Positions 10,544-60,893 of a stretch of DNA of 64,000 nucleotides are shown piece by piece (within the stretch, counting starts at the first letter, position 1; each line of letters begins with the position of its first letter). Origin of the DNA: Methylococcaceae bacterium. Its GTDB lineage: Bacteria; Pseudomonadota; Gammaproteobacteria; Methylococcales; Methylomonadaceae. The stretch covers positions 5,683-69,682 of the forward strand of contig JBJPGG010000004.1 of assembly GCA_048595505.1 (NCBI GenBank), read 5' to 3'. The notes beneath the pieces are model-generated. The model did not search any database. It saw nothing but the letters and a program-made list of their open reading frames with translations, and had not been told where the DNA came from. The position numbers and the translations under genes were made by a program.

Positions 10544-10562
10544 TTATCACTGAAGGATATTT

Positions 10563-12672: not shown

Positions 12673-12692
12673 GCCAAGTTTATTGCCGGTTA

Positions 12693-12720: not shown

Positions 12721-12769
12721 CATTAGGCAAAACCGATTGTTATAGTAAGATTATTTAAAGGTTCCTTTG

Positions 12770-15715: not shown

Positions 15716-15791
15716 GGGTGCTTAGCTCAGCTGGGAGAGCATCGCCCTTACAAGGCGAGGGTCGGGGGTTCGATCCCCTCAGCACCCACCA
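15716..15791 (+). tRNA. tRNA-Val (anticodon UAC)
   Basis: 76 nt: GGGTGCTTAGCTCAGCTGGGAGAGC...CTTACAA loop...GGTTCGATCCCC...CACCCACCA, close to E. coli tRNA-Val(UAC). Confidence 0.95.
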
Positions 15792-15799
15792 GAGACTAT

Positions 15800-15876
15800 G
15801 GAGCGGTAGTTCAGTTGGTTAGAATACCGGCCTGTCACGCCGGGGGTCGCGGGTTCGAGTCCCGTCCGCTCCGCCA
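15800..15876 (+). tRNA. tRNA-Asp (anticodon GUC)
   Basis: 77 nt: GGAGCGGTAGTTCAGTTGGTTAGAATACC.GCCTGTCACG...GGGTTCGAGTCCCGTCCGCTCCGCCA, near-identical to E. coli tRNA-Asp. Confidence 0.95.
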
Positions 15877-44800: not shown

Positions 44801-45380
44801 TCAGATGGTATTAGCCAGTCGTTTGGGTTATCGAATAACTGAGCAGTTTGTACATGAATTTATGGGTAAAATCTTTGACAATCCAAGTTCAGTGTTAACA
44901 GAAGATATTCTTAAGCCAGAAACCCAAAACTTGCATGATTATGTTGATGGTATTCATAATATTGTTGAGACACAGCAAAAAGTGGCGCAACAATATTTGG
45001 ACGATGGCAGTGTCGCAGATGCCTGCCCACCGTTACAGGCTTTGTTACATATCATGGCAACAGGGAATTATCAGGGCAAGGATGTGCATGACCCTGAGAT
45101 TAGAGAGTTATTTAGCAAACAAAGTTTGTTAGCATCAGACTGGTATCTTGAGCGTCTACAAGTTAAACAAAATAGAGATATTGCTTTATGGGTTAGACAT
45201 GTCAAGAGCTTACAAGACTTTTCTGAGTTACCAAATTATGCTGACGAAGTTGAGCGATTGAATATTAAGCAACGCCTAATTAATGCACAAGCTGAATTGG
45301 AAAGAGTAGAAAGTCCTGCTTATCTGGAGCAGATGATAGGTATGATAGGGGCAGACCCAGTCAAGCAGCCAAGACATTAG
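41895..45380 (+). CDS. Large (1161 aa) PEPCK-motif protein; candidate PPi-dependent phosphoenolpyruvate carboxykinase
   Basis: GTG start with AGGAG 7 nt upstream. YFGYCKK (aa 335-341, nt 42897-42917) resembles the PEPCK YGGEMKK motif. The P-loop-like TVSGGGKSEIS (SGGGKS at nt 43383-43400) resembles the PckA kinase-1a motif GLSGTGKTTLS. The roughly 131 kDa size class matches the reported ~130 kDa PPi-PEPCK subunit. Confidence 0.5.
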   Translation: MDLSKALGLNISEQDPVLLQQKLHLYINLKLASCGQPTCLKGESADFLATADDMLRSFVEKSRQLVSHHYPADRRIQDFLDSYLSDLGLESIPTLPTLTFELDRHGIARELSLPMGEDTFKSECVSSYKVKQGVLHNPANDRRTTKGSFHIAAGGLPVPGDKKEVPKQTFASMLKHALNPPKGLTLLPYTANEETPAYMFTSLLLRPTVCPAIPGVAEQKSMEIRFFAPGTLVSNLDFVESIFGNGGNPALPEYDAGLDVEHWTGQSGCVILAPHLVKLTKKELGLPHWDDATERQRKDAMCWQESEELYNDGQAFKLTARDERGVIITMLADNYFGYCKKEVKTQIGYAANLYGFSEEEHAGGALAFHCQNHGNEYGAGGASREAGYSFNELTKSYGDLMDVMPEGYAVDKEYPEIVYVPQDVKMDVPTQAITWKNDKLTWNSDKKTSSLRLQPGKIYVKPNGYKLELIKHPAAPSWRLIGTAAEGTFCHKPSTVSGGGKSEISKSISDAVIFNTLFVNDLNEDLDRVQEIFDRDYSDRYRKKLDAADWVSSRALLSANRSLGSVIKLLTPSTGYTDEFNQWLTEIPPYIRALVLLIKRFYQEDWGDSWRTFFSADIVDGSPGHDLKFEGRQIIASFLRVGFNEQGGWRTFKVRQDFYAAEKIQMEDDITSSVVVPVSMVSKYMSDQKVGESIKLTANCEYRLFQRPDDAIVPGYDKQTELNMAGPDNFIANYEPLFADKLSAIVEDVLTMSKFTEPMHDLLEQAYKDASGIVVSSAHPRIVDGKPTKNPRYLERRADVINPVRKYLADLGVRLHSRIPLGVEVVHPVDAVLAGRRNNPPEPGIRALAVYNPIHYQQLPELFMDFICSLTGKSPSTTGAGSEGALTKGPFNALRATADLNNALVSFILTGYAGFSSSAGHIGSHVRVDHDISLLIPEIWTRLKTHEREPNYLIEQGCLEALEDFEYEGQMVLASRLGYRITEQFVHEFMGKIFDNPSSVLTEDILKPETQNLHDYVDGIHNIVETQQKVAQQYLDDGSVADACPPLQALLHIMATGNYQGKDVHDPEIRELFSKQSLLASDWYLERLQVKQNRDIALWVRHVKSLQDFSELPNYADEVERLNIKQRLINAQAELERVESPAYLEQMIGMIGADPVKQPRH

Positions 45381-45556: not shown

Positions 45557-48331
45557 GTGACAAAGGTAATTAAAATCCTTTTTTTTTGTTGTGTGATTTT
45601 TCTATTACTCATACCCTTTGGAGATTTTTCTCTCGAGGGTAAGAAACCTCACCCATCAGAACTACCCGAATCGCAGCCCATACAATTAACGGCTGAAGAA
45701 CAAACATGGCTGGAGACGCATCAGCCTATTCGTATTGCATTTGATGGTTTTTTCCCTCCCTATAGTTTTATTGCCGAGTCTGGCCAAATATCGGGTATTT
45801 CATATGATACTATCCAATTAATAAGTCGAAAGCTTAAGATTTATGTCCAAATAGATGACAGAGTTGTGTGGAAAGATATTTATAACGCGACGCTTAATAA
45901 GGAAATTGATGTCATAGCTACTATGGTCAGAAGACCTGAACGCGATTTACAATTCGTTTTTACCAAGCCTTATGTTTTTAAGTCATTGGTTATCATCACT
46001 CATAACAGCAATGCAGAGATAAACGATCGCAGTAATTTGACTGGGAAAACTGTTGTATTGATGAAAAACTATCGATATTCCCAACGTGTTTTAAAAGACT
46101 TTCCCGGTATTACGCCTTATTACGTGGAAGATATGCATGAAGCACTTAATATTATTGAAACTAAACAGGCTGATGCGGCCATTGGTTTTTTTGCTGCCAG
46201 TTATTTTTTACAAAACAAGTATCTATTAAATGATATCAAGTTTGCCGCTTTTTATGACCGTAACAGTGCAAACGAAAGTATTGCTGTGCGCAATGATTGG
46301 CCCATATTGGTTAGTATTTTCCAAAAAGGACTGGATGCAATAACCGAACAAGAAAAACAAATAATAAACAGTAAATGGCACCCGCCTACAGAACTGCCAT
46401 TTGACTATGAAATGATTTTTAAAGTTGTGGCTGTTTTTCTGTTGGTTTTATTTATATTACTGCTATGGATTGGGCAAATAAATCGTCAAAACCGGCGCAT
46501 CAAACTAGCAAAAAAAAAATTACTTAAATCGAACAGAGAGTTAAATGAGTTAAAAAAAAACCTTGAAAATCAGGTGGTAAAACGTACCGAACAATTGCAA
46601 AACAGTGAGCAAAAATACCGTAGTCTGGTTGAGAATTTACATGATGAATATTTTTTTTATCAGCATGACCTGGATGGTACGTTTACCTACTTAAGTCCTT
46701 CAATTACCTCCATCCTGGGCTATAGTGTGGATGATTTTTTACAACACTCTAATACCTATTTAACGGATCACCCTGATAATAGAAAGATAGATATGTATAC
46801 TGCCCGGTGTATCAATGGCGAAAAATTACCCGCTTATGAAGTGGAGTTATTTGATAGTAAAAGCCATAAACGTAGCTTTTCAATACTAGAAACAGCCGTT
46901 TATGATGAGGATGGTGTGTGTGTTGGCGTTGAAGGAATTGCACATGATATTACTTTAATAAAGCAGACTCGGGAGCGGTTGAACTGGTTATCTTATTATG
47001 ATGATTTGACTGGCTTGGCAAATAGACGGCTATTTAAGGACCGATTTGAGCAAGTCATCATTTTATCGCATCGTCATCAGCAAAAACTGGCTTTGTTATT
47101 TTTGGATCTTGACCATTTTAAACAGGTCAATGACAGTTTAGGGCATGCTGTGGGTGATGAGGTTCTTAAAGAAACGGCATCAAGATTACAAGCACAATTG
47201 CGCGATTCTGATATCTCTGCACGAATGGGCGGGGATGAATTTACTCTAATTTTACCAGACACGGATGCTGATGCTGCAGAAATTGTAGCTAAAAAGATCA
47301 GACATAGTTTATCATTGCCTTATTATTCAAATGATCAGCAATTTATACTGGGTGCCAGTATAGGAATTGCTATTTATCCAAAGGATGGAAATGATACCGA
47401 GACCTTGTTGCAACATGCAGATAACGCAATGTATTTTGCCAAAAAGGCGAAAACAGGCTATGCATTTTGTTCATCTGATCAGCAGGAAATAAGCAGTCGA
47501 AGTCATATACTTGAACAGGCTTTGCGTAAAGTGCTTGACCAACAATGTTATGAAGCAGACTTTGAATTATATCTTGTGTTTCAATCTAAATATTGTCTAA
47601 AAAACAATTGTATATTAAGTTATGAAGCGTTAATACGCTGGCATCACCCTGAATTAGGCATGGTTTCTCCCCTTGAATTTATTCCTATTGCGGAAGAAAC
47701 CGGATTAATCCCTGAACTTACTCATTGGGTGATGACCCGAGTTTGTTTGCAGGCGTTACAGTGGTCTGGGAAAGGGTTTGATTTTGGTCGAATCGATGTG
47801 AATATTTCAGCGGTTGAGTTGATTAATTTAGAGTTGGCAAAAAATATTATTGAGCAAATTCGATCTTCTGGAGCATTACTGGAATGGATAGGTATTGAAA
47901 TCACTGAAACTGCGTTAATGAAAGCGCCTAGTGTAGCGGCCAGAGTGTTGCAACAACTAAAGAATGCTGGTGTGTTAATTTCGATTGATGATTTTGGTAC
48001 AGGCTATTCATCATTATCCTATCTTAAAAATTTACCCGTTACATTTATTAAAATAGATCAATCATTTATTCATAATTTGCTGGATAGTCGAGAAGATCAG
48101 GCGGTTGTTCAAGCTGTAGTGTCAATGTCGCATGCATTGGGTAAAAAAGTGGTTGCAGAAGGGGTGGAAACACTGGAGCAAATACAATATTTAATTGAGC
48201 ATGGCTGCGATATTATTCAAGGAAACTGGTTATCCAAGCCTGTTTTAGCAGAAGAGGTTAGTTTAGCTAAGAATGTTGGCTACTTTCCATTAGCAAGCAG
48301 GGTTCAGGCTATTTCAACCCTAAAAGATTAA
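45557..48331 (+). CDS. Membrane sensor with a periplasmic solute-binding domain, PAS, GGDEF and EAL domains (c-di-GMP turnover)
   Basis: 924 aa with a GTG start. In order: signal/TM, an SBP_bac_3-like domain, a second TM, a coiled coil, PAS, GGDEF (RMGGDEFTLIL), and EAL (YEALIRWHHPELG ... DDFGTGYSSLSYL). Confidence 0.9.
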   Translation: MTKVIKILFFCCVIFLLLIPFGDFSLEGKKPHPSELPESQPIQLTAEEQTWLETHQPIRIAFDGFFPPYSFIAESGQISGISYDTIQLISRKLKIYVQIDDRVVWKDIYNATLNKEIDVIATMVRRPERDLQFVFTKPYVFKSLVIITHNSNAEINDRSNLTGKTVVLMKNYRYSQRVLKDFPGITPYYVEDMHEALNIIETKQADAAIGFFAASYFLQNKYLLNDIKFAAFYDRNSANESIAVRNDWPILVSIFQKGLDAITEQEKQIINSKWHPPTELPFDYEMIFKVVAVFLLVLFILLLWIGQINRQNRRIKLAKKKLLKSNRELNELKKNLENQVVKRTEQLQNSEQKYRSLVENLHDEYFFYQHDLDGTFTYLSPSITSILGYSVDDFLQHSNTYLTDHPDNRKIDMYTARCINGEKLPAYEVELFDSKSHKRSFSILETAVYDEDGVCVGVEGIAHDITLIKQTRERLNWLSYYDDLTGLANRRLFKDRFEQVIILSHRHQQKLALLFLDLDHFKQVNDSLGHAVGDEVLKETASRLQAQLRDSDISARMGGDEFTLILPDTDADAAEIVAKKIRHSLSLPYYSNDQQFILGASIGIAIYPKDGNDTETLLQHADNAMYFAKKAKTGYAFCSSDQQEISSRSHILEQALRKVLDQQCYEADFELYLVFQSKYCLKNNCILSYEALIRWHHPELGMVSPLEFIPIAEETGLIPELTHWVMTRVCLQALQWSGKGFDFGRIDVNISAVELINLELAKNIIEQIRSSGALLEWIGIEITETALMKAPSVAARVLQQLKNAGVLISIDDFGTGYSSLSYLKNLPVTFIKIDQSFIHNLLDSREDQAVVQAVVSMSHALGKKVVAEGVETLEQIQYLIEHGCDIIQGNWLSKPVLAEEVSLAKNVGYFPLASRVQAISTLKD

Positions 48332-48484
48332 TGGAATTTATTTTTACCCTCTTTTGAAGATCATTTATAAAAAGTGATAGGCTGTTGTTATATAATGAGC
48401 TATCAGAATGTTTGGTTGAGTCTATGTCTTGAGGAAATATTCTGTCTCTTTCTATTTATTTGACACTATATAATAAAGTTGGCA

Positions 48485-49177
48485 ATGGATCTTCAGCATT
48501 CTTCTGGAAACGACGCTCAAACTCAATTTTCAAGGAAAGAAATGTTAGACATTAGTGATGGCATAAGTAAAAGTTTTGCACCTGTTATTGCTGCTGAGAT
48601 ACTAGAACAAGATGAAGGGATACAGTTAGCTAGTCAAGATCTGCTCGAAGTAAGTCAAAATATTAGTTTGTATTTTGCACCGAGCATGTCATCAAACGCT
48701 AACAAACTTGTTGTATTACCTATCGATCCTCAGCATATTTATGCTTATTGGCATTTGAATGATAATCCCGAAAAATCAATGTCTCAACGTATGTTGAATG
48801 ACGAGTTGACGCTTAGAGTTTATTCACAGCCAGAGCAAAAGAAACAAGCAGTCCACATAAGCCCTCTGGTTGAAATTCCAATCCATGATTTTGATTCACG
48901 ACATAGAATTAGATTGCCAGAAGCAGAAAATGCAACAGCTTACTCTGTCAGCATAGAAGCAGCGGTTAAAAAAAATGACTTTGTTTCATTGATAGACTCC
49001 AATAATACCTATACTTTTCAAGGATCATTGGAGCAGAAAGAACGTCATGAAACTGAAGGTTATTCAGAGCAATATGATGATGTTGAAACTAAATTAATAG
49101 ATAGAGAGGCTTCTCGCAAGGGCTCTTCTTCAGTTTATGCAAGTTTAACGTCTTCTGCTAAAGGGAAGAAAAGATAA
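48485..49177 (+). CDS. DUF4912-like protein (family commonly found next to GH57 genes)
   Basis: The core VVLPIDPQHIYAYWHL is typical of DUF4912 as I recall it. The N-terminus has a duplicated motif (LDISDGISKSFAP / LEVSQNISLYFAP). ATG 48485 is preferred over TTG 48479. The gene ends 5 nt before the GH57 gene. Confidence 0.55.
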   Translation: MDLQHSSGNDAQTQFSRKEMLDISDGISKSFAPVIAAEILEQDEGIQLASQDLLEVSQNISLYFAPSMSSNANKLVVLPIDPQHIYAYWHLNDNPEKSMSQRMLNDELTLRVYSQPEQKKQAVHISPLVEIPIHDFDSRHRIRLPEAENATAYSVSIEAAVKKNDFVSLIDSNNTYTFQGSLEQKERHETEGYSEQYDDVETKLIDREASRKGSSSVYASLTSSAKGKKR

Positions 49178-49182
49178 CAGCG

Positions 49183-50775
49183 ATGAAAAAAGGATTCCTC
49201 AGTATCATACTTCATGCACATTTACCTTATGTGCGACATCCAGAGCATGATAGTTTTTTTGAAGAGATCTGGTTGTTTGAAGCAATGACTGAGTGCTATA
49301 TCCCATTATGTGACGTCTTTGAACGTTTACAAAAAGATGATGTTAATTATCGCTTAACACTGTCCTTATCACCTACGTTAATCTCAATGTTGCGGGATGA
49401 TTTATTACAAACGCGTTACCAAAATCATCTGAACAAACAAATTGAATTGGCTGAAAAGGAAATCATCAGAACTCTTAATCAACCGCCACTGCAAAAATTA
49501 GCACGTTTATATAGGCGTTTTTTTATAAGTACACGTAATACCTATAATAAATATAATTGTGATTTATTAATGGCTTTTAAAAAGTTCCACGCGCAGGGGC
49601 ATCTTGAATTAATTACCACTGCAGCGACCCATGGTTTTTTACCATTACTTAGCATCAGTGAAACGGCTGTCCGCAATCAGATTGAAGTAGCGGTTGAGAT
49701 GTTTGAATCCAATATTGGTTTTGCACCTACTGGTTTTTGGATTCCAGAATGTGCTTATTATCCAGGGTTGGAAGTGATTTTAGGTAATGCGGGTATCAAA
49801 TACTTTTTTACTGATACGCATGGTGTAATGGAAGCAAGTGAGACGCCTGATAATGGGGTGTATGCACCACTAGATTGTGGTAATGGAGTGATGGCTTTTG
49901 CACGTGACCCTAATGTATCTCAGCAGGTTTGGAGTGCCGAACAAGGTTATCCTGGTGATGTAAATTATCGTGAATACTATAGTGATATTGGATTTGATTT
50001 GGATATGGGGTATCTTGCACCTTATATACTGGATGGACAAAACCGTATCAGTACAGGCATTAAGTATCACCGAATTACTGGTGAGGGCTTGAAAAAAGAA
50101 TGTTACCAGCCGAAAAAAGCAAAACTTAAAGTAAAGCAAGATGCTGATGATTTTGTTAGTAAGTGTCAGCAACAAATTGATGACTTGAGTCTTGGTATGG
50201 ACAGGCCACCTGTAATTGTGGCACCTTATGATGCTGAACTGTTTGGACATTGGTGGTTTGAGGGGCCTTGCTGGCTGGAAATGGTGCTAAGAAAAGTCGA
50301 TGAAAGCAACAATATTGAAACAATAAGTTGTGGGGATTATTTAAAAAGACAAGGTTCTCATCAGGTTGCGATACCTGCATCTTCCACCTGGGGGGAAGAT
50401 GGCTATTGCAGTTATTGGGTTAATGAAGAAAATGACTGGATTTATCCTTTTTTGCACAAAGCAGCTGATCAAATGGAACAATTAGTGATCGATTTTAAAG
50501 GGGTAACCGTATCATCGATGCAAAAACGCGCCTTAAATCAGGCAGTAAGGTCTATTTTGTTAGCCCAGGCATCGGATTGGCCATTTATTATGAAGTCGGG
50601 GACTACAACTGACTATGCTAAAAAAACAATAACAGATCAATTGGCAAGGTTTAACTATCTACATGAGAGTATACGTAAGAACAAGATTGATGAACGCTAT
50701 TTGTGTGCATTGGAATTGATGGATAATATTTTTCCTGATGTTGATTTTCGTAAATATAAGTCTATTGAGTTATAG
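49183..50775 (+). CDS. GH57-family 1,4-alpha-glucan branching enzyme
   Basis: 530 aa, collinear with the Thermus GH57 branching enzyme as recalled: LHAHLPYVRH, ELITTAATHGFLPLL, GFWIPECAY, VWSAEQGYPGD, APYDAELFGHWWFEG, LAQASDWPF. Confidence 0.88.
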   Translation: MKKGFLSIILHAHLPYVRHPEHDSFFEEIWLFEAMTECYIPLCDVFERLQKDDVNYRLTLSLSPTLISMLRDDLLQTRYQNHLNKQIELAEKEIIRTLNQPPLQKLARLYRRFFISTRNTYNKYNCDLLMAFKKFHAQGHLELITTAATHGFLPLLSISETAVRNQIEVAVEMFESNIGFAPTGFWIPECAYYPGLEVILGNAGIKYFFTDTHGVMEASETPDNGVYAPLDCGNGVMAFARDPNVSQQVWSAEQGYPGDVNYREYYSDIGFDLDMGYLAPYILDGQNRISTGIKYHRITGEGLKKECYQPKKAKLKVKQDADDFVSKCQQQIDDLSLGMDRPPVIVAPYDAELFGHWWFEGPCWLEMVLRKVDESNNIETISCGDYLKRQGSHQVAIPASSTWGEDGYCSYWVNEENDWIYPFLHKAADQMEQLVIDFKGVTVSSMQKRALNQAVRSILLAQASDWPFIMKSGTTTDYAKKTITDQLARFNYLHESIRKNKIDERYLCALELMDNIFPDVDFRKYKSIEL

Positions 50776-50809
50776 TAAATGAGTGAATATTTAAAACATT
50801 AGGCTAAGC

Positions 50810-52315
50810 ATGGATAAAATCCAATTACTTTATATAGAAAATGTTATCACCAGGAAAAAAAGTCAGGTTCAGCAGCAATTGACTTTTTTTATGCTGGTAG
50901 AAAATATTAGCTATGATAAGCAAGTAGATGTTGTGTGGGCGGGTGAAGATGGTTGTTGGCACACCTTAGCGGTTAAATATCACTGTGTGCAAGGACATGA
51001 TAAGGAATATTGGCGTACACAGGTTGTTATTACGCTGAATGATGAGCAGTCACTTCCAGGCAATATTCAGTTTGGGTTGCGTTTTCGGGTTCATGGTTTT
51101 GAATACTGGGACAATAACAAGGGCCTTAATTATAGTAGTGATGCTGATTCGGGTATTAAGCTGGCAAATAGCCAAGTGATACAAAATATTGGTTTTGAAA
51201 GCTATTTGAATGATGGGCAGAATAACGTTCCTGTCACTGTTGCAGTAGACCAATCTTTTAATGCTGAAACAGTGACTATTCACTGGACGACTGATCGTTG
51301 GAATACCACTCAATATGAACACTGCCAATTAAAAGGAACTTATTGGAATAAAGCTTTGCATAGTAATGCCAGAAACCCAAATCAATATGGAATACAGATA
51401 TGGGAAGGGCGAATTAACAATGGTGATTCGTTTAGGTTGCAATATAGTATCTGTTGTGAAAGCCATGGACAGATAGTATGGGAAAATAATTACGGCAGTA
51501 ATTATTCTTTCCAAAGGGAACAGTTAAAAGTCTTGATTCTTAATTTACATTGTTATCAGGAAGAAAACCAGGATGAAAAGTTTTCAAAAATAGCTGAAGC
51601 GATTGATGATCTGGACGTTGACATTGTTTGTCTGCAGGAAGTGGCTGAGTTGTGGAATGATGGCCATGGTGACTGGGAATCAAATTCAGCGAGAATAATT
51701 AATGAACGCTTAAAGCTACCTTTTCATATTCACACGGACTGGTCGCATTTGGGGTTTGATAAATACAGGGAAGGTGTTGCTATTTTAAGCCGCTATCCTT
51801 TATCTGATCATGACTCCGGGTATGTATCTGATAGTCATGATGCGTTTAGTATACATTCCAGAAAAGTAGTGATGGCTCGCGTTCATGTACCTTATGTTGG
51901 CCCAGTTAATGTATTTTCCGCTCATTTAAGCTGGCTGGAAGATGGTTTTCAGGAACAATTCCAGAGATTGCATGAATGGGCCGAAACGCGTCATAGTGGT
52001 GATGTTAAAGCAACAATGTTATGTGGCGATTTTAATATTACTGCCGGAACAAGTGGTTATGAACTGGTAGTTGATTCAAATGAATACGATGATCAGTATT
52101 TAGCAGCAAATGAGCAGGGTGTATTTGAAAAAATATTTAGAGTCAATGATTCACATTGGCAAAGTTTATTGGCCGATGACTACCGGATAGACTATATTTT
52201 TATGAATAAGACCAGTGAGTTACAGGTCACTTCTGCTAAAGTGGTATTTACAGATCAGGACTATGGACAAGTGTCAGACCACTGCGGTTATTTTATGACA
52301 TTTGAACCAAAATAA
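50810..52315 (+). CDS. Tandem CBM21-like starch/glycogen-binding modules fused to an endonuclease/exonuclease/phosphatase (EEP) domain
   Basis: Two modules, about aa 5-110 and 120-234, end in FEYWDNNKGLNYS and IVWENNYGSNYS, the CBM21 hallmark WDNNxGxNY. The EEP motif series is present: LNLHCYQEE, VCLQEV, CGDFN, RIDYIF, VSDHCGY. Confidence 0.7.
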   Translation: MDKIQLLYIENVITRKKSQVQQQLTFFMLVENISYDKQVDVVWAGEDGCWHTLAVKYHCVQGHDKEYWRTQVVITLNDEQSLPGNIQFGLRFRVHGFEYWDNNKGLNYSSDADSGIKLANSQVIQNIGFESYLNDGQNNVPVTVAVDQSFNAETVTIHWTTDRWNTTQYEHCQLKGTYWNKALHSNARNPNQYGIQIWEGRINNGDSFRLQYSICCESHGQIVWENNYGSNYSFQREQLKVLILNLHCYQEENQDEKFSKIAEAIDDLDVDIVCLQEVAELWNDGHGDWESNSARIINERLKLPFHIHTDWSHLGFDKYREGVAILSRYPLSDHDSGYVSDSHDAFSIHSRKVVMARVHVPYVGPVNVFSAHLSWLEDGFQEQFQRLHEWAETRHSGDVKATMLCGDFNITAGTSGYELVVDSNEYDDQYLAANEQGVFEKIFRVNDSHWQSLLADDYRIDYIFMNKTSELQVTSAKVVFTDQDYGQVSDHCGYFMTFEPK

Positions 52316-52339
52316 TAATACAGAAAGAAGAGGGATGAG

Positions 52340-53941
52340 ATGGAAATAGCAGAACATTATGCTTGGCCTGTTCGAGGTGAATTAGGTGGCTCATTTGCAC
52401 GAGTTAATGATTTCAATCATGAGTTTTATGTACGCTGGGGCAAGATAGATTTTGATATGCACCAGGGTGTTCAGGTTAATCTTAAAGTTATCCTGAAGGT
52501 GTATAGTAATGACGGTATCTGTGAAACTTATGTTATAGATTCTGATGCCTATGATGTTGAATGGAATAGACATAAGCGAAGAACGCGCGATTTTTATATA
52601 CATCCGTATTCCAGTACTTATGGACAGGTTAACTGTGTAAAGTTTTCCTTTATTGTGCATAAGGATGGACGTTCTATTGCATCGGAAAAAGAATATATTT
52701 TTATGGATTGGCCTCAATTACAGGGTAATCCAGATGAACATCAGTTTAGAGATATTTCTGCTGATCACACCACAGATAACCATTATCGAACTTATGAATT
52801 AAATGCAGGCGAATTGCAGAGCGATGTCGACTGGTTTAATCATCATTTTGAATCATTAGGGCTGGTTCCTAAATTCACCAAAGGGCAATTAAATCATCCT
52901 TATCACCCTAAAAGTTATATTCATCATTTGATCGATAAAGTGATGCATTGTAAATGGGAAAACCCTGATCGGCTTTGTACCATTAAAGTCAGTGTGGATT
53001 GTATTGATGATGCGGATTTTGTAACTCACTTGGTTCATGCCAGTGAACAAGGGGTGTGGGTTCAGTGCATTGTTGATTGGCGCAAGATGACTTTGACTAA
53101 TAGCCACAGTTACGCGCGATTAAAACGTGCAGGTATAGAGTTGATCGGAGTGGTTTGTAGTCCTGATCATCATTTGATTGAAGTTGAGCCAGATATGCAT
53201 ACCAAATTCATTATTTTTAATGATGAGGATTGCATCATGGGCTCTTTTAATATTACCTTTGATCGCTGGTGGGCTAATTGGGAGTCAGGCATGACATTCC
53301 ATTCTAAAGGTGTGTGCCGGTTAATGGATAATATTTTTCAGAGTCAACGCGGCGGTGTAATTCAGCAATATGGAGTTGATCCTCACAGCCAGTTTAATTT
53401 GCTATACACTTTTGGCCAGCACACCATGGAAAATGGTGCGAATTATCTTCCTCATCATGCTATTTTAGGTGAAATTAATCGAGCCCAACATTCAATAAAA
53501 GTTACTTTATTTTTGATCGGTGAATTATTGGGAGACCATCAGGATAGCGTAATTTCGGCTTTGATTAATGCCAAAAACAGAGGTGTTCATGTTCACCTAT
53601 TATTAAATGGACATATTGCCAGACAGGGTAAAGTTGGCGTAGTACGATCTATGGATGATGAATTAAGTCAGCCTTTATTGCCAGCAGTAGATCAATTGAG
53701 ATTTGCTGGTGTTACCGTTGGCTTAGTCTATGGGAAGGATGACCATGAGGTACCTTATTCACCTATCCATTCAAAGTATTGCATTATAGATGACTATATT
53801 GTGATTGATGGAAGTTTTAACTGGTATAACACGTCTGTTTTTTCACATGATTTAGTTGTAATTGCCGCTAATCATGAAGTGGCAAAACCCTATTTACATG
53901 AGTTTGAAGAAATACAGCATGCATTTAGGGTTTATTATTAA
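52340..53941 (+). CDS. Soluble phospholipase D superfamily protein with two HKD motifs and an unassigned N-terminal region of about 280 aa
   Basis: HKD-1 is HTKFIIFNDEDCIMGSFN (nt 53198-53251) and HKD-2 is HSKYCIIDDYIVIDGSFN (nt 53768-53821, a perfect HxK(x)4D(x)6GSxN). No hydrophobic TM segment is visible. Confidence 0.75.
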   Translation: MEIAEHYAWPVRGELGGSFARVNDFNHEFYVRWGKIDFDMHQGVQVNLKVILKVYSNDGICETYVIDSDAYDVEWNRHKRRTRDFYIHPYSSTYGQVNCVKFSFIVHKDGRSIASEKEYIFMDWPQLQGNPDEHQFRDISADHTTDNHYRTYELNAGELQSDVDWFNHHFESLGLVPKFTKGQLNHPYHPKSYIHHLIDKVMHCKWENPDRLCTIKVSVDCIDDADFVTHLVHASEQGVWVQCIVDWRKMTLTNSHSYARLKRAGIELIGVVCSPDHHLIEVEPDMHTKFIIFNDEDCIMGSFNITFDRWWANWESGMTFHSKGVCRLMDNIFQSQRGGVIQQYGVDPHSQFNLLYTFGQHTMENGANYLPHHAILGEINRAQHSIKVTLFLIGELLGDHQDSVISALINAKNRGVHVHLLLNGHIARQGKVGVVRSMDDELSQPLLPAVDQLRFAGVTVGLVYGKDDHEVPYSPIHSKYCIIDDYIVIDGSFNWYNTSVFSHDLVVIAANHEVAKPYLHEFEEIQHAFRVYY

Positions 53942-54010
53942 TAAATCTTAAAACCAGTTGTTGCTAACTGAGGCGTACAACGTAGTCGTATTCCTCAGTG
54001 ACTATTAAGA

Positions 54011-56104
54011 TTATGAATTAATATTTTCAAAAGCAACAATGGTTTTTTCATTAACCAAAAATGTATCAGTTGTTACTGGCTTTTGATTGGGCCTGCGGAT
54101 AATATCTTTGGGTGAATCTTGTGATGTATCTACTGATAAACACCATGTTTTTCCTTCGATTTCAGGTAATTCAATAGTCGTTTTTTGTTCAGACATATTG
54201 ATAATAACGTGTAAGTCAGGTTCATTTTCTCCAGTACCAGCAAGAGTGAAAGCCAGCAAACGCGTTTCAGGGTCTTCCCACCGTGGTGTGTCTAATTTTG
54301 CACCATGCCATGAAATATCTTTAATACCTCTGGATTCGATTATGTTACCTGTCAAAAAACGTCTGCGCATGATTGATGCATGGCGTTTACGCAAGGCGAT
54401 CATTTGTTGAACAAAGCGTAGCATATTTGCATTTTCATTCACCATCTCCCAGTCAATCCAGGTTAGTTCGTTATCCTGACAATAACCGTTATTATTACCA
54501 TCCTGTGAATTGAGTATTTCATCACCTGCGAGAATCATGGGAACGCCTTCGCTAAGCAACAAAATAGCAAATGCATTTTTAGCTTGTTTTTTTCTAAACC
54601 CTAGAACACTTCGGTCGTTTGTTGGACCTTCTATGCCGCAATTGGAGCTTATATTATTGTTACAACCATCTCTGCTTTCTTCACCATTCGCTTCATTATG
54701 CTTTTGGTTATAACTAAATAAATCATTTAAAGTAAAACCATCATGACAGGTGATGAAATTGATGCTGTTAATAGGTAAACCATCCTGGTGAGCATACAAA
54801 TCGCTACTACCTGAAATACGTGTGGCAAGTTCTTGTATTTTACCTGAATCGCCACGCAAAACTTCGCGTACTACATCTCTGTACTTACCATTCCATTCGG
54901 CCCAGCGGTGGCCCGGAAAGCTACCAACTTGATAAAGACCAGCGGCATCCCATGCTTCGGCAATGAGTTTAGTTTGTTCTAGTTGTTGAGAAAGCTCAAT
55001 GCTCCAAAGTACAGGAGGATCTTCAAGCACTGCTCCACCTTCACCTCTGGCCAGGGCACTGGCTAAATCGAAACGAAAACCATCAACATGCATTTCTCTT
55101 ACCCAGTATTCAAGACTACTGGTAATAAAAGCAGCAACTAGAGGGTGATTAGCATTGACTGTATTACCACAGCCGGTATAGTCATGCAGTACGCTTTTGT
55201 CGTTCTTATCGTGATGGTAAAAAATATTTTCCCCAATGCCACGAAAGTTGATGATGGGTCCACCTATGCCAGCTTCAGATGTATGGTTGTATACAACATC
55301 TAAAATAATGCCGATTTTTGCAATATGCAGTGCTTTGACCAAATCACGGAATTCTTGTACATGCGTCCCTTGTTCAGGAGTCACACAGTAGCCTGGGTGC
55401 GGGCTAAAAAAACTGTGGGTGCTATAACCCCAGTAATTCTTTAGACCAAGGTTAATAGTGCCTTCTGGAGCATCCTGTTCATCAAAAGCCATAATCGGTA
55501 GTAACTCAACATGAGTAATGCCCAATTTTTTTAGATACGGGATTTTTTCAATCAAACCCGAAAATGTACCTGGGTTTTTAACATTAGCAGAAGCATGGCG
55601 GGTAAAGCCACCTACATGTAATTCGTAGATAACTGATTTTTCACTGCTGATGCGTAAAGGTTTGTCACCTTCCCAGTCATAAGCATCATCATCGACTACC
55701 ATACAGCGCATGGCTGTTGCGCTATTATCACCTGGTGAACAGGCAGCTTGGCGGTCCCAGTACATGTCGCATACCACACGGGCCCAGGGATCTATTAGTT
55801 CTTTTTCTTTGTCAAAATGTAAGCCGGCTTCTTTGGGTTCGTTCGACCCATCAATGCGCCAGCTGTACCAGCTTCCTGCTGTTAATCCAATAACATAAAC
55901 ATGCCATGAGTAAAAAGTTCTGTTGATATTTCGTTCTAAGTGTATGGTTTGAAAAGGTTGTTTACTACTTGCTTTTTCAAATAATAATAGTTCAACACTG
56001 GTTGCATGACGCGTAAAAATCGAGAAATTAACCCCGCCTTCATTCGGCTTAGAGCCTGAAGGATAGGATTGACCAGGTTTGATTTTGTATTCTTTATTTT
56101 GCAT
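54011..56104 (-). CDS. glgX: Glycogen debranching enzyme GlgX (GH13 with N-terminal CBM48-type module)
   Basis: 697 aa with GVNFSIFTRHATSVELLLF and GH13 regions DVVYNHT, DGFRFDLAS, AEAWD, FITCHDGFTLND. Confidence 0.9.
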   Translation of the reverse strand: MQNKEYKIKPGQSYPSGSKPNEGGVNFSIFTRHATSVELLLFEKASSKQPFQTIHLERNINRTFYSWHVYVIGLTAGSWYSWRIDGSNEPKEAGLHFDKEKELIDPWARVVCDMYWDRQAACSPGDNSATAMRCMVVDDDAYDWEGDKPLRISSEKSVIYELHVGGFTRHASANVKNPGTFSGLIEKIPYLKKLGITHVELLPIMAFDEQDAPEGTINLGLKNYWGYSTHSFFSPHPGYCVTPEQGTHVQEFRDLVKALHIAKIGIILDVVYNHTSEAGIGGPIINFRGIGENIFYHHDKNDKSVLHDYTGCGNTVNANHPLVAAFITSSLEYWVREMHVDGFRFDLASALARGEGGAVLEDPPVLWSIELSQQLEQTKLIAEAWDAAGLYQVGSFPGHRWAEWNGKYRDVVREVLRGDSGKIQELATRISGSSDLYAHQDGLPINSINFITCHDGFTLNDLFSYNQKHNEANGEESRDGCNNNISSNCGIEGPTNDRSVLGFRKKQAKNAFAILLLSEGVPMILAGDEILNSQDGNNNGYCQDNELTWIDWEMVNENANMLRFVQQMIALRKRHASIMRRRFLTGNIIESRGIKDISWHGAKLDTPRWEDPETRLLAFTLAGTGENEPDLHVIINMSEQKTTIELPEIEGKTWCLSVDTSQDSPKDIIRRPNQKPVTTDTFLVNEKTIVAFENINS

Positions 56105-56600: not shown

Positions 56601-57053
56601 TTATTTATGACACTCAATTTTAAATGAGCGAATTTTGTGATAAAAATTATACTCACCAAAGCTATGAACCTTAGAGTTAGGGTGAAGAATAATTTCTGAG
56701 TCTTCCAAGATATCCTGTTTAGTAATACCTAAGGATTTCATTAACACTGGATGGTTGGCCATTTCTTTTAATGTTAATTTGAAATTTTTATTTTCAAACA
56801 CAGTGACCGTTGCTTTGGGTCCAATCAGAATGCTTTCAATTCGTTTGTCCCAATTTTCTTTGTTTATTTTTAATAAATTTTTCTTTTGAGTGGGGCCATT
56901 AAGACGAAAGTGTTTACCCTTAAATTGACCATCTTCAAAAAAATCTGCCCAACAGTCTTTACTTTTTGCATTTATGGTTGATCCATAGCCTAATAACAAA
57001 GTTAGAATGAGTAATGTTTTAAAGCCACGAAATATTAATTTTAACTGTTTCAT
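56601..57053 (-). CDS. Secreted small protein, possibly of beta/gamma-crystallin-like fold
   Basis: From ATG 57053, MKQLKLIFRGFKTLLILTLLLGYGSTINA is a signal peptide. The FFEDGQFKGKHF segment resembles the crystallin Y/FxxxxF/YxG motif. The upstream 53 codons of the track ORF cover a REP-like element and are rejected. Confidence 0.45.
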   Translation of the reverse strand: MKQLKLIFRGFKTLLILTLLLGYGSTINAKSKDCWADFFEDGQFKGKHFRLNGPTQKKNLLKINKENWDKRIESILIGPKATVTVFENKNFKLTLKEMANHPVLMKSLGITKQDILEDSEIILHPNSKVHSFGEYNFYHKIRSFKIECHK

Positions 57054-57115
57054 TTCTATTTCCTCATGGTTGGATAGCTTTCTAGTAGCTTGGCAACTTT
57101 GCTTTGATGAGTACT

Positions 57116-57194
57116 GTAGAGCGGACTTCAGTCCGCAATTTCTGATATGACGTACTACATAGAATTGTTCATAGCGGACTGAAGTCGGCTCTAC
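57116..57194. repeat. REP-like pair of inverted 21-nt palindromic units
   Basis: GTAGAGCGGACTTCAGTCCGC (57116-57136) and its inverted copy GCGGACTGAAGTCGGCTCTAC (57174-57194) differ by 1 mismatch and are separated by a 37-nt spacer. Each unit also contains its own GCGGAC-N4-GTCCGC type hairpin. Confidence 0.7.
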
Positions 57195-57293
57195 AACGAA
57201 TCTATTTATCAAACCAAAGTTAGCTACTTATCTCACAATATCAGCTTTCAGCATAGTTTTTTTTACGTTGGTTTGGGGAAATGGCTTTAAATA

Positions 57294-60200
57294 TTAATTT
57301 TGACATTTGCCATAACCACCTCCGCCTGGTGTTTCAATTTGAATACTATCATTTTTGTGTAAATTAACCTGGGTGCAAGCATCAACTGTAATGACTTCTC
57401 CATTAGCTTTAATCACAGTATTCATGCCAACTTGTGCGGCTAAACCATGCTGAACTCCAAAAGGTGCGTGTACACGATGACTGGATAAAATTGTGGCAGA
57501 CATGGATTCAAGGAATTTGATTTTTCGCCTGACACCATTGCCTCCTTTCCACAGGCCTGCTCCACCCGTATTCTGACGAATTGAGAACTCCTCCAATAGT
57601 ACGGGGAAGCGCCATTCTAAAACCTCAGGGTCGGTGATTCTGGAATTGGTCATATGAGTTTGAACAGCATCACTTCCATTAAAGCCATACCCCGCTCCCG
57701 CACCTCCGCAGATGGTTTCATAGTATTGATAGTTATCATTTCCAAAGGTAAGGTTGTTCATAGTCCCTTGCGAACCTGCCAAAACACCTAAAGCACCATA
57801 AAGAGCGTCCACGATAGTTTGAGATGTTTCTACATTACCTGCAACAACAGCGGCAGGATATTGTGGATTGAGCATGGAGTTTTTGGGAATAATAATGTTG
57901 AGTGGTTGTAAGCATCCAGCATTCAAAGGAATATCATCTGTTACTAAAGTTCTGAAAACATAAAGTACTGCCGCTTTACATACAGCAGCAGGGGCATTAA
58001 AGTTGCTGAGTTGTTGTGTTGAAGACCCGGTGAAATCAATAGTGGCTGTTCTTAAAGCCTTATTTATCTGGATTTTAACGACTATTTTGGCGCCATTATC
58101 AAGTGTATTAATAAACTGGCCATCAGTTAATGAGGGTAAAATATTGCGCACACATTCTGCTGCATTATTCTGTACATGTTGCATATACTGTAAAACAGTT
58201 TGTAGTGTATATTGTTCTACCATTTTCCTTAACTCAAACATGCCTTTATTATTGGCCGCAATTTGAGCTTGTAAATCGGCAATATTTTGTTCAGGATTAC
58301 GTGCGGGGTAGGGTGATGATTCCAGCCAGCGTCTGACTTTCTGTTCTTGAAACACCCCCTTTTTTACTATGATCATTCCCATACTGAGTACGCCTTCTTG
58401 TTCAATGTGCTGACTATCTGCAGGCATTGAACCTGGGCTTATGCCTCCCACATCTGCATGATGACTGCGTGAGGCAATAAAGAATAATAAACGACTGTTA
58501 TCTACGCTGAAAACAGGTGTAACGACTGTAATATCGGGTAAATGGGTGCCCCCATGATAAGGTGAATTTAATAAATAAACTTGCTCTGCTTTAATCGATA
58601 CCTGATCCGAATTAAGTAATGCTAAAACACTTTCTCCCATAGACCCTAGGTGAACTGGAATATGGGGCGCATTAGCAATTAACTGGGCATTGTTATCAAA
58701 CAAGGCGCAGGAAAAATCCAGCCGTTCTTTAATGTTGACTGAATAAGCCGTTTTTTGTAATACAAAGCCCATTTGTTCTGCTATCGACATAAATAACTTG
58801 TTAAATATTTCCAGCATAACAGGGTCAGCTGTAGTGCCAACTGCCAGTTGGCGTTTGATAGGCTGGGTACGAGTTAGAACTAAGTCATTAGCTGCTGTGA
58901 TTTTACCTTCCCAACCGGGTTCTATGACTATCGTTGCAGTTGGTTCAACAATAATTACCGGTCCTTTTAAAATCACAGCTTGAGTTAATGACTCGCGTTG
59001 ATAAACAGGAGTTTTATGAGATCTATTCTCGGTAAAGATGTCCGTGAACAATGCAGGGATAGCATGATGATTTGATGGTTGAGTTAAAATTTCCTGGTCA
59101 GTTGAATTCTGACCAATAATTTCTACCGATAAGGACTCGATAATGATCGCTTTATCGGTAAAAACAAAGCCAAATTGTTGTTGATATTGTTTCTGAAAAC
59201 TCAGTAACATGCTGGCTTTATCAGCGAATAATACAGCTAATGAAGTATCTGTTCCAAAATAGCGTAAGTTGACTCTAAAGATGCTGGAAATTTCCAGGTC
59301 ACTTATTTGCAGCAACATTTCAGCGCGTCCCTGTTGCTCCAATATTAATAACTGATCTTTCAGTTGCGTATAACTGGCTTCTTCCCATGGTTGTTCAAGG
59401 GCAGAATCTTTTAATAATCTCAAATCTGCCAGCCCCATGCCATAGGCCGATAGTATGCCAGAAAATGGGTGTAACATAATGGTTGTTATGCCCAGGCGGT
59501 CAGCTACTTTACAGGCATGTTGTCCGGCAGCAGCCCCATAACAGCATAGAGTATATTCAGATACGTTATAGCCCTTTTGTACCGATATTTTTTTAATGGC
59601 AGTTGCCATGTTTTCGACAGCAATATTGATAAAGCCTTCGGCAACTTGTTGTGGACTACGTTGGTCTGCGCAACTGTTTTTTATTTGTGCTGCCAATTGA
59701 ACGAACAGTTGTTCAACTTTCTCTTTATCTAATGATAAATCCCCATGCTCACCAAATATGGCAGGAAATAAAGGCAATTTCCCCAGCATGATATTGGCAT
59801 CGGTAACGGTTAGAGGGCCTCCTCGACGATATCCAGCAGGACCAGGGTTAGCGCCGGCAGACTCAGGGCCTACGCGATAACGAAGACCATCAAAGAACAA
59901 CAGCGAACCGCCGCCTGCAGCAACGGTATGAATATTCATCATCGGTACACGCATTCTTATACCTGCTACTTCGGTCTGGTAACTGCGTTCCAATTCTCCC
60001 GCATAATGCGCAACATCGGTAGATGTTCCACCCATATCAAAGGCAATAATTTTATTAAACCCTGCCTTTTTCGCGGTTTCAACAGCGCCTACAATACCAC
60101 CAGCAGGACCTGACAAAATACTGTCTTTACCCTGAAAGTTTTGTGCTGCTGTTAATCCACCGTTGGATTGCATGAACATAATTGTAGGGGGGGTAACATG

Positions 60201-60893
60201 TTCAGCGCAGAGGCCGTCGGTCACTTGATTAACGTAACGCTTGAGCAGTGGAGATAAATAAGCATCAACCACAGTGGTGTCGCCACGGCTGACAATTTTC
60301 ATAAAAGGACTGACTTGATGGGAAATAGATATCTGGCTGAACCCAATAACTTTAGCCAGTGATGCCAATTGACATTCATGTGCAGGGTATCGCCAGGCAT
60401 GCATAAGAACAATAGCAATAGAACGCAGACCTGATGCAAAAAGTAATTCTAGTTGCTGTTTTACTTTGGGCTTATCTAATGGTTTTAATACCTGGCCCTG
60501 GGCATCAATACGTTCATCAATTTCAATGACTGTTTGATAAAGTTGTTCTGGAAGTTGAATGTCCAGTGCAAAAATATCAGGGCGGTTTTGATAGCCTATG
60601 CGCAAACAGTCTTTAAAACCTGCGGTAATAAGTAAAGCAGTTGCTTCACCTTTTCGTTCTAATAATGCATTGGTGCCGACTGTAGTCCCCATTTTTACAC
60701 AAGCAATGGATTTGTTGCTTGCCTCGGCTATGAAGTCGTTAATGCCTTGTAATGCTGCATCAGCATAATGTTCGGGATTGTCCGAGAGTAGTTTGCGGGT
60801 AAGCAGTTGATTGTCAGGTGTGTTGGCAACGATATCGGTAAATGTTCCTCCCCGGTCTATCCAGAATTGCCAGTTATTATCAAAGTCAGCCAT
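57294..60893 (-). CDS. 5-oxoprolinase (ATP-hydrolysing) / fused hydantoinase A-B family protein
   Basis: 1199 aa. The N-terminus WQFWIDRGGTFTDIV and an actin-like ATPase fold (FDMGGTSTD) indicate HyuA. The C-terminal half is HyuB-like (DPVMLEIFNKLFMSIAEQMG). Confidence 0.88.
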   Translation of the reverse strand: MADFDNNWQFWIDRGGTFTDIVANTPDNQLLTRKLLSDNPEHYADAALQGINDFIAEASNKSIACVKMGTTVGTNALLERKGEATALLITAGFKDCLRIGYQNRPDIFALDIQLPEQLYQTVIEIDERIDAQGQVLKPLDKPKVKQQLELLFASGLRSIAIVLMHAWRYPAHECQLASLAKVIGFSQISISHQVSPFMKIVSRGDTTVVDAYLSPLLKRYVNQVTDGLCAEHVTPPTIMFMQSNGGLTAAQNFQGKDSILSGPAGGIVGAVETAKKAGFNKIIAFDMGGTSTDVAHYAGELERSYQTEVAGIRMRVPMMNIHTVAAGGGSLLFFDGLRYRVGPESAGANPGPAGYRRGGPLTVTDANIMLGKLPLFPAIFGEHGDLSLDKEKVEQLFVQLAAQIKNSCADQRSPQQVAEGFINIAVENMATAIKKISVQKGYNVSEYTLCCYGAAAGQHACKVADRLGITTIMLHPFSGILSAYGMGLADLRLLKDSALEQPWEEASYTQLKDQLLILEQQGRAEMLLQISDLEISSIFRVNLRYFGTDTSLAVLFADKASMLLSFQKQYQQQFGFVFTDKAIIIESLSVEIIGQNSTDQEILTQPSNHHAIPALFTDIFTENRSHKTPVYQRESLTQAVILKGPVIIVEPTATIVIEPGWEGKITAANDLVLTRTQPIKRQLAVGTTADPVMLEIFNKLFMSIAEQMGFVLQKTAYSVNIKERLDFSCALFDNNAQLIANAPHIPVHLGSMGESVLALLNSDQVSIKAEQVYLLNSPYHGGTHLPDITVVTPVFSVDNSRLLFFIASRSHHADVGGISPGSMPADSQHIEQEGVLSMGMIIVKKGVFQEQKVRRWLESSPYPARNPEQNIADLQAQIAANNKGMFELRKMVEQYTLQTVLQYMQHVQNNAAECVRNILPSLTDGQFINTLDNGAKIVVKIQINKALRTATIDFTGSSTQQLSNFNAPAAVCKAAVLYVFRTLVTDDIPLNAGCLQPLNIIIPKNSMLNPQYPAAVVAGNVETSQTIVDALYGALGVLAGSQGTMNNLTFGNDNYQYYETICGGAGAGYGFNGSDAVQTHMTNSRITDPEVLEWRFPVLLEEFSIRQNTGGAGLWKGGNGVRRKIKFLESMSATILSSHRVHAPFGVQHGLAAQVGMNTVIKANGEVITVDACTQVNLHKNDSIQIETPGGGGYGKCQN

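Follow-up and report, generated by a model that had tools for sequence, protein, structure and literature searches.

The window (the whole 64,000-nucleotide stretch of DNA analysed here, from contig JBJPGG010000004.1 of a Methylococcaceae bacterium) contains a glycogen-metabolism locus in which a gene for an endonuclease/exonuclease/phosphatase (EEP) protein with two starch-binding modules is followed by a gene for a phospholipase D (PLD)-like protein. The two genes form a cassette that Methylococcales have repeatedly kept inside glycogen operons. We read the encoded proteins, with a probability of about 45%, as a pair of cytoplasmic enzymes that is targeted to glycogen and processes phosphoesters: the EEP enzyme would remove sugar-bound phosphate, and the PLD-like protein would play a part that we can only infer. 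The cassette consists of the following features, in which CBM21 denotes carbohydrate-binding module family 21.

50810..52315, plus strand: 2xCBM21+EEP protein, 501 residues (Pfam CBM_21 twice and Exo_endo_phos)
50810..51154, plus strand: CBM21 module 1 of the EEP protein, residues ~1-115 (CBM_21 match at residues 11-109)
51182..51517, plus strand: CBM21 module 2 of the EEP protein, residues ~125-236
51521..52315, plus strand: EEP catalytic domain of the MapP-like clade, residues 238-501 (PF03372, 58.4 bits versus 24.5)
52340..53941, plus strand: dual-HKD PLD-like protein, 533 residues (PLDc_2, 118.3 bits versus 27, in two stretches)
52340..52789, plus strand: N-terminal beta-sandwich of the PLD-like protein, residues ~1-150 (AlphaFold2 (AF2) model)
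52790..53941, plus strand: dual-HKD PLD-superfamily catalytic region (HKD1 at ~53198-53251 and HKD2 at ~53768-53821)

Conservation of the EEP-PLD cassette

A profile scan for CBM21-EEP proteins in one genome per GTDB species returned 463 relatives. The best 80 of the 463, all from Methylococcales, were examined with 10-kb flanks, onto which the window proteins were mapped and in which all open reading frames (ORFs) were clustered. A PLD homologue lies immediately 3' of the EEP gene on the same strand in 68 of the 70 Methylococcales species loci with room for it, and the median gap between the two genes is 82 nt. A GH57 gene directly precedes the EEP gene in 39 of 63 loci, and in 38 related loci a DUF4912 homologue is found upstream of GH57. 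The cassette is found in two arrangements. The first is DUF4912>GH57>EEP>PLD, and the second, malQ<GH57b<glgC<glgB>glgA>EEP>PLD>, occurs in nine loci (L021, L048, L055, L060, L066-L068, L076 and L080). Methylobacter combines both as (glgX>) DUF4912> GH57> EEP> PLD> ... glgA< glgB<, with glgX upstream of the run and on the same strand, unlike the convergent glgX of the window. Of the 39 well-flanked Methylococcales loci, in which the sequence extends at least 5 kb upstream and 6.5 kb downstream, 33 have an alpha-glucan gene no more than 8 kb from the EEP gene. The gene arrangement is more than chance and recurs in dozens of Methylococcales species, and the recurrent linkage to glg and GH57 genes in two arrangements supports a glycogen context for the cassette.

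The pairing extends beyond Methylococcales. Full-length 2xCBM21-EEP proteins with 42-55% identity are encoded in Ca. Methylophosphatis/Sterolibacteriaceae, in Kiritimatiellia and in three further metagenomic lineages. A PLDc_2 gene of ~530-540 codons directly follows the EEP gene in all five of these lineages, although it is fragmented in one. Over its full length, the PLD partner retains 58-64% identity from phylum to phylum. The PLD-like protein is the more conserved member of the pair, with a mean identity of 79% versus 66% for the EEP protein. The pairwise identities of the two proteins correlate with r = 0.95 over 74 pairs, a value that shows co-inheritance and nothing stronger, since any two vertically inherited genes would correlate. 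Among the stand-alone, CBM25-fused and CBM21-Kelch-fused EEP relatives examined, neither a PLD neighbour nor an EEP-PLD fusion was observed.

The first-pass annotation of this DNA had linked the EEP and PLD genes to GH57 and glgX and had raised their co-occurrence across genomes. Both the linkage and the co-occurrence are borne out by the counts above and are not peculiar to this genome. Its view of four genes as the functional unit did not survive. The EEP-PLD pairing persists across lineages and without glucan genes (in six of the 39 well-flanked Methylococcales loci and in the five other lineages), and the evolutionary unit is therefore the two-gene EEP-PLD cassette, not the four-gene operon.

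Other genes accompany the cassette in particular lineages. In Ca. Methylophosphatis (L081/L082, 8976-14117), the EEP-PLD genes are flanked by an S6PP-like gene of the sucrose-6-phosphate phosphatase family and a PfkB sugar kinase gene, a context that is carbohydrate-related but not glycogen-related. Two carbohydrate-esterase-like genes, one AXE1/CE7-like (79.5 bits) and one of the PF00756 'putative esterase' family, follow the PLD gene on the same strand in six loci of the glgB-glgA type (L048, L060, L067, L068, L079 and L080). In seven Methylobacter loci (L017, L027, L035, L038, L041, L044 and L063), a gene for a membrane-anchored CE4 polysaccharide deacetylase is located between PLD and glgA. 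The esterase and deacetylase neighbours, taken with the phosphoesterases, hint at a broader 'de-decoration' gene set.

EEP catalytic domain

The EEP domain is assigned by its sequence to the clade of maltose 6'-phosphate phosphatase (MapP), at ~30% identity. The catalytic residues N245, E277, H372, D407, N409, D461, D490 and H491 are invariant in alignments of relatives. Beyond this generic catalytic set, H313, R351 and R459 are common to the EEP domain and the whole MapP clade. In a comparison with all PDB sequences, 3teb is the sole match at E ≤ 1 (E 3.6e-25). The same entry, a structural-genomics structure of an uncharacterised EEP protein from Leptotrichia buccalis, also ranks first among the Foldseek matches to the AF2 model (E 5e-20, TM 0.82), in which the EEP domain has a pLDDT of ~90. 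A tblastn search of plasmids revealed Firmicutes EEP genes with 29-31% identity to the domain (E down to 7e-23). In E. faecium pCBA710401, the EEP gene follows a gene for a phosphotransferase system (PTS) IIBC transporter and faces GH65, pgmB and epimerase genes, which is how the maltose locus where MapP was reportedly discovered is laid out (Mokhtari et al. 2013, Mol Microbiol 88:234); the encoded EEP protein is 33% identical to 3teb (E 4e-46). The closest characterised relative of the EEP domain by sequence is MapP or a protein from a MapP context, and many homologues of the EEP protein carry the JGI label maltose 6'-phosphate phosphatase. The first-pass annotation had called both phosphoesterases unassigned, a description that holds for the PLD-like protein, which falls into no subfamily, but not for the EEP protein, given this existing label. 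Membership of the MapP clade at ~30% identity supports sugar-phosphate monoesterase chemistry and leaves the substrate unfixed.

MapP of Enterococcus faecalis is classified as EC 3.1.3.90 and KEGG K06896. MapP is reportedly a maltose 6'-phosphate phosphatase that acts on a disaccharide phosphate (Mokhtari et al. 2013). Its substrate is an alpha-1,4-glucoside that carries a 6-phosphate. MapP and 3teb resemble the window protein in the EEP fold, the catalytic residues, the H313/R351/R459 set and the 29-31% identity over the domain. The proteins differ in architecture and context. MapP is a single-domain protein of ~270 residues encoded beside the maltose PTS EIIBC and a GH65 phosphorylase, whereas the EEP protein has 501 residues and two CBM21 modules, and its gene has GH57, PLD and glgX as neighbours and no PTS or GH65 gene.

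Another EEP sugar-6-phosphatase, BT3783 (PDB 4c1r), is also found among the Foldseek structural matches. BT3783 and BT2630, the mannose-6-phosphatases of Bacteroides thetaiotaomicron, are similar to the EEP protein in that they are EEP enzymes that remove a sugar 6-phosphate from a polysaccharide-derived substrate. However, they exhibit ~15% identity, reside in the periplasm, serve mannan degradation and lack a CBM. The upstream 'uncapping' step for BT3783/BT2630 is reportedly carried out by a glycosidase rather than by a PLD enzyme (Cuskin et al. 2015).

CBM21 modules

Both N-terminal modules of the EEP protein are classified from sequence as bona fide CBM21. Pfam CBM_21 matches the protein in two stretches with 60.8 bits versus 28.9, and modules 1 and 2 align with each other with an hhalign probability of 97.6%. 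Module 1 aligns to the CBM21 of Rhizopus glucoamylase (2djm), and module 2 aligns to the CBM21 of PPP1R3B (2eef) over residues 141-240. In module 1, W50 and W68 are invariant and W100 is nearly invariant across phyla. In module 2, W164, Y212 and W224 are invariant. The aromatic residues of both modules are kept in sequences down to 33% identity, and those that align to W47 and Y94 of the Rhizopus CBM21 are conserved. The roles of W47 and Y94 are reportedly described in Tung et al. 2008. PPP1R3A/B/C and Rhizopus glucoamylase have the CBM21 fold in common with the EEP protein, but in the eukaryotic proteins the partner of CBM21 is a Ser/Thr protein phosphatase or a glycoside hydrolase, whereas the bacterial protein joins CBM21 to an EEP phosphoesterase.

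Other members of the EEP clade carry other starch-binding modules. The EEP domain of relative P0347 is fused to a CBM25 that scores above the gathering score, and weaker CBM25, CBM26, X25 and CBM58 matches are found beside the EEP domain in P0266, P0345 and P0365. P0256 and P0302 contain an EEP domain with a single CBM21. That at least two unrelated families of starch-binding modules are fused to EEP domains of this clade is, at the level of sequence, the strongest argument for action on alpha-glucans.

Two of these relatives have unusual settings. P0256 (CAF1012147.1) is a single-CBM21+EEP homologue in an assembly of the bdelloid rotifer Didymodactylos carnosus, with 37% identity over the matched region and 33% in alignment A3, and may reflect horizontal transfer or contamination. 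P0302, a CBM21-Kelch-EEP protein, is encoded at L089 (4216-10307) two genes after an 892-codon PPDK_N/Rph_4th/PEP-utilizers dikinase-like gene, with a UbiA prenyltransferase gene in between and phosphonate-biosynthesis genes adjoining the three. The domain set of the dikinase-like protein follows the same logic as that of glucan,water dikinase (GWD), and the gene is either a candidate 'writer' or a coincidence.

PLD-like partner

The PLD-like protein is assigned by its motifs and domain matches to the HKD superfamily, where it belongs to no named subfamily. Two HxK(x)4D/N(x)6GSxN motifs, the hallmark of the PLD superfamily, are present in one chain, as HKD1 (H287/K289/N294...G301-S302-x-N304) and HKD2 (H477/K479/D484...G491-S492-x-N494). 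Both are invariant in Methylococcales, Betaproteobacteria and Kiritimatiellia. PLD-superfamily chemistry consists of phosphodiester cleavage or transfer via a phospho-histidine intermediate. The generic superfamily matches of the protein comprise Zucchini, Nuc, NucT, PLD, F13, Pss and PPK1, and its identity to any solved structure is below 25%. Every NCBIfam cut-off tried was missed (DrmC 37/133, NucT 25/297, Cls 24/290 and PPK1 16/466), and Pfam PP_kinase_C, at 25.6 bits versus 25.8, falls just under its cut-off. The protein shares two HKD motifs and the PLD fold with known HKD enzymes (Nuc/NucT/Zucchini, bacterial PLD, cardiolipin and phosphatidylserine synthases and the C-terminal part of PPK1) but differs from them in an N-terminal beta-sandwich of its own (~150 residues) and in the lack of membrane segments.

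The N-terminal ~150 residues are modelled by AF2 as an all-beta sandwich with a pLDDT of ~80-88. This domain is conserved across phyla and rich in invariant basic residues. It has no Pfam match at E ≤ 10 and no PDB sequence match, and a profile search with it returned only fragments of the same PLD family. A CBM21-like identity for this domain was considered and rejected (hhalign probability 0.9%, again with neither a Pfam nor a PDB match).

Proposed mechanism and alternative explanations

In the proposed mechanism, two soluble cytoplasmic enzymes would act on phosphoesters attached to, or derived from, the storage alpha-glucan, glycogen. The tandem CBM21 modules are predicted to tether the EEP enzyme to glycogen or malto-oligosaccharide chains. 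By homology, the EEP enzyme would be a metal-dependent phosphomonoesterase that strips phosphate, probably at C6, from 6-phosphoglucosyl residues of glycogen or dextrins, and this removal would unblock branching by GH57, debranching by GlgX, elongation and phosphorolysis. The obligatory pairing and the superfamily chemistry suggest that the PLD-like protein may handle a phosphodiester on the same substrate via a phospho-histidine. In its simplest role, it would uncap a diester-linked substituent and leave a monoester for the EEP enzyme. Its position in Methylococcales glycogen operons would couple production of the cassette proteins to that of the enzymes that depend on chains free of phosphate. 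Phosphate bound to the glucan reduces the affinity of branching enzymes, among them a bacterial one (PMC13011383), which offers a reason for transcribing the pair along with GH57 or glgB.

Several observations weigh against this reading. The six well-flanked Methylococcales loci without a glucan gene nearby (~15%) have unrelated housekeeping genes as neighbours and no third conserved partner, glg or GH57 genes lie near the pair in none of the five other lineages, and conserved synteny among related species is partly common descent. No reports of phosphorylated bacterial glycogen were found in the literature, and no candidate 'writer' enzyme is evident. The identity to MapP is only ~30%, so the specificity could differ, and the EEP family also holds diesterases and nucleases. 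For the PLD-like protein, NCBIfam, PDB sequence, profile and Foldseek searches yielded no named subfamily, the nearest sequence relatives are nucleases or cardiolipin hydrolases, and AF2 models its catalytic half poorly (mean pLDDT 62). The first-pass idea of glucan phosphoester editing therefore stands in part: it is strengthened by the placement of the EEP domain in a sugar-phosphate phosphatase clade, while the role of the PLD-like protein and the presence of phosphate on bacterial glycogen are not supported.

A further-reaching proposal is that the glycogen of methanotrophs, some Betaproteobacteria and Kiritimatiellia is covalently modified with a phosphate or phosphodiester substituent. 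CBM21-EEP and PLD would then constitute a complete processing system, non-homologous to the dual-specificity phosphatases (DSPs), in which the PLD-like protein uncaps or writes and the EEP enzyme erases. We regard this proposal as doubtful.

The EEP enzyme could instead perform small-molecule housekeeping, dephosphorylating soluble phospho-malto-oligosaccharides rather than the polymer, with the PLD-like protein separate or merely accessory. The substrates would be, for example, maltose-6'-P-like by-products of the hexose-phosphate-rich ribulose monophosphate metabolism, and CBM21 would only raise the affinity for oligosaccharides. The disaccharide phosphate on which MapP reportedly acts fits this explanation, as do the many stand-alone EEP relatives that have neither a CBM nor a PLD partner and the position of the cassette away from glycogen genes in several lineages. 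However, polymer targeting is typically the task of such tandem CBM21 modules with their conserved aromatic residues, the window locus has no maltose PTS or GH65 gene, and the near-universal pairing with PLD would be left unexplained. We consider this explanation unlikely.

A writer-eraser pair, in which the PLD-like protein is a phosphotransferase that installs a phosphate or phosphodiester on glycogen and CBM21-EEP removes it, would adjust the solubility of the granules in the way known for GWD and SEX4 with starch. The donor could be a nucleotide-sugar, a CDP-alcohol, a lipid or polyphosphate, for example, and the intermediate a phospho-histidine or phosphoryl-substituent species. The PLD superfamily includes synthases and transferases with a covalent His intermediate (Cls, Pss and PPK1), and Ca. 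Methylophosphatis, one of the host lineages, is a polyphosphate-accumulating candidate. The stronger conservation of PLD than of EEP, the conserved N-terminal domain of PLD with its invariant basic residues and the weak PP_kinase_C and PPK1 similarities point in the same direction, but PPK similarity of this kind comes with the PLD fold in general and lies under threshold. Moreover, no donor-binding domain is recognisable in the PLD-like protein, and a writer and an eraser co-transcribed without an obvious regulator would be futile. This arrangement appears very unlikely.

The two proteins might also have nothing to do with glucan chemistry and be nucleases or lipid phosphodiesterases that serve, for example, in stress, defence or membrane remodelling and that CBM21 only parks or sequesters on glycogen granules. 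By sequence, the PLD-like protein is nearest to nucleases (Zucchini/MitoPLD, Nuc, NucT and the DrmC type), nucleases and lipid phosphodiesterases make up most of the EEP superfamily, and some loci have no carbohydrate context. Against this explanation, the EEP domain is closest specifically to the MapP clade, with H313, R351 and R459 in common, its relatives are fused to other starch-binding modules, and the cassette recurs inside glg and GH57 operons; we therefore judge it hardly probable. An anti-phage defence function was rejected, as PADLOC gave no match for the EEP and DUF4912 proteins and only a weak, generic DrmC match for the PLD-like protein (42 bits).

Relation to known glucan phosphatases

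The known glucan phosphatases in the literature found are all DSP enzymes, and none is bacterial. Laforin (CBM20+DSP), SEX4 (DSP+CBM48) and LSF2 resemble the cassette in combining a glucan-binding module with a phosphoesterase encoded with polyglucan metabolism, and also in the proposed role of freeing the glucan of phosphate so that other glucan enzymes can act. The differences lie in the parts. Laforin, SEX4 and LSF2 rely on Cys-based DSP catalysis, whereas the cassette has a metal-dependent EEP fold. The eukaryotic enzymes use CBM20 or CBM48, whereas the bacterial protein uses tandem CBM21, and the obligatory PLD-type partner has no counterpart in the laforin/SEX4/LSF2 systems. The two CBM21 modules do supply the starch- or glycogen-binding module that characterises glucan phosphatases. 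Pfam and NCBIfam detect only CBM_21 and Exo_endo_phos in the EEP protein and no DSP domain (Cx5R motif), and because this defining domain is lacking, the EEP protein is an analogue, not a member, of the laforin/SEX4 group.

The statement of the first-pass annotation that no bacterial counterpart of these enzymes had been described agrees with the literature, in which none was found. Searches on bacterial glucan phosphatases, bacterial CBM21, DUF4912, PLD with methanotroph glycogen and a CRISPR interference screen yielded no description of the cassette. Within its first 300,000 characters, a large 2024 review of prokaryotic alpha-glucan enzymes is silent on glucan phosphatases, glycogen phosphorylation, CBM21 and DUF4912.

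In plants and animals, the solubility and turnover of starch and glycogen granules are controlled by reversible phosphorylation, and failure of this process results in starch-excess phenotypes and Lafora disease. To our knowledge, the route by which phosphate enters mammalian glycogen is not yet settled. With somewhat less than an even chance, on the sequence data, the cassette encodes a CBM-tethered, glucan-directed phosphoesterase that is built from parts non-homologous to the eukaryotic ones and has a highly conserved PLD partner. If so, polyglucan storage in different domains of life would have arrived by convergent evolution at one principle, glucan phosphorylation and dephosphorylation, and bacterial glycogen would be chemically decorated. 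The cassette is carried by Methylobacter and Methylomonas isolates and would open the function of glucan phosphate to genetic study. Methanotroph glycogen is a target of methane bioconversion, and enzymes that control its structure would thus be of applied interest.

Locus layout and neighbouring genes

The window proteins were compared with Pfam (gathering scores), NCBIfam (equivalog cut-offs), PDB sequences and PADLOC. The cassette forms the second half of a four-gene same-strand run, and the remaining features of the locus are as follows.

48479..49177, plus strand: DUF4912 protein, 232 residues, first gene in the same-strand run (PF16258, 50.4 bits versus 29.4)
49183..50775, plus strand: GH57 1,4-alpha-glucan branching enzyme-type protein, 530 residues (Pfam Glyco_hydro_57 and BE_C)
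53967..53999, no strand: inverted repeat ACTGAGG ... CCTCAGT in the spacer that separates the PLD gene from glgX (minimum free energy -18.4 kcal/mol, z = -2.59); possible bidirectional terminator
54011..56104, minus strand: glgX glycogen debranching enzyme, 697 residues, convergent with the four-gene run (TIGR02100)

The genes of the run are separated by 5, 34 and 24 nt. The PLD gene and glgX end at convergent stops on either side of a 69-nt spacer, which holds the hairpin. The ORF list reproduces the four-gene run and the convergent glgX as the first-pass annotation had described them, except that the first ORF is opened mechanically at TTG 48479; the alternative ATG at 48485 is the in-frame codon 3. 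The DUF4912, GH57, CBM21+EEP, dual-HKD PLD and GlgX assignments of that annotation were all upheld by the profile hidden Markov models of Pfam and NCBIfam, and all Pfam domain calls on the five proteins exceed the gathering score. No hydrophobic stretch compatible with a signal peptide or a transmembrane segment was found in the four proteins of the run, which are therefore taken to be cytoplasmic.

The GH57 protein combines the GH57 catalytic domain (Glyco_hydro_57, 125.5 bits) with BE_C (110 bits) and similarity to solved branching enzymes, as expected of a GH57 branching enzyme. Its closest PDB match is 2b5d (T. maritima AmyC; E 1.4e-141), followed by the branching enzymes 3n8t, 5wu7 and 3p0b, and it carries the FWIPECAYY and APYDAELFGHWW motifs. 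Its NCBIfam score of 329 lies below the equivalog cut-offs for the Thermus and Thermococcales enzymes (920 and 1000), and we therefore claim no orthology to those exact enzymes. The glgX product passes the TIGR02100 equivalog cut-off (678.3 bits versus 640.9) and consists of CBM_48, Alpha-amylase and ISOA1-3_C domains.

Upstream of the run, TTGACA is followed after only 3 nt by a TATAAT-like sequence, ~8 nt before ATG 48485 (48461-48485), and the spacing of the hexamers is non-canonical. Should the TATAAT-like sequence serve as a -10 box, the mRNA of the DUF4912 gene would have almost no leader. The gene directly upstream (45557-48331, plus strand) encodes a periplasmic-sensor SBP_bac_3-PAS-GGDEF-EAL protein. 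GGDEF-type genes are found again a few kilobases downstream of the PLD gene in several Methylobacter loci (L010, L019, L022, L039 and L058). In Streptomyces, GlgX is reported to be bound by c-di-GMP (PMC9530166). With the GGDEF/EAL neighbours, this report makes a regulatory connection of c-di-GMP to the turnover of glycogen conceivable.

Farther from the run, a 1161-codon ORF without a Pfam or NCBIfam match (41895-45380, plus strand) encodes a PPi-dependent phosphoenolpyruvate carboxykinase, with full-length PDB matches to 6k31 (1176 bits) and 8e1u (1140 bits). On the other side, glgX and an oxoprolinase-like gene (Hydantoinase A/B, 57294-60893) flank a gene for a protein with a beta/gamma-crystallin domain (56601-57212, minus strand; PF08964, 29.1 bits). 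A hydrophobic stretch inside this protein suggests that it is secreted when translated from a downstream start codon. The GC content is uniform (0.34-0.41), and nothing around the locus points to a mobile element. ORFs of 432, 219, 419 and 806 codons at 9245-15187 resemble tig-clpP-clpX-lon in size and order and are flanked by tRNA-Leu, tRNA-Val and tRNA-Asp genes (8960-9044 and 15716-15876), which suggests an ordinary chromosomal backbone.

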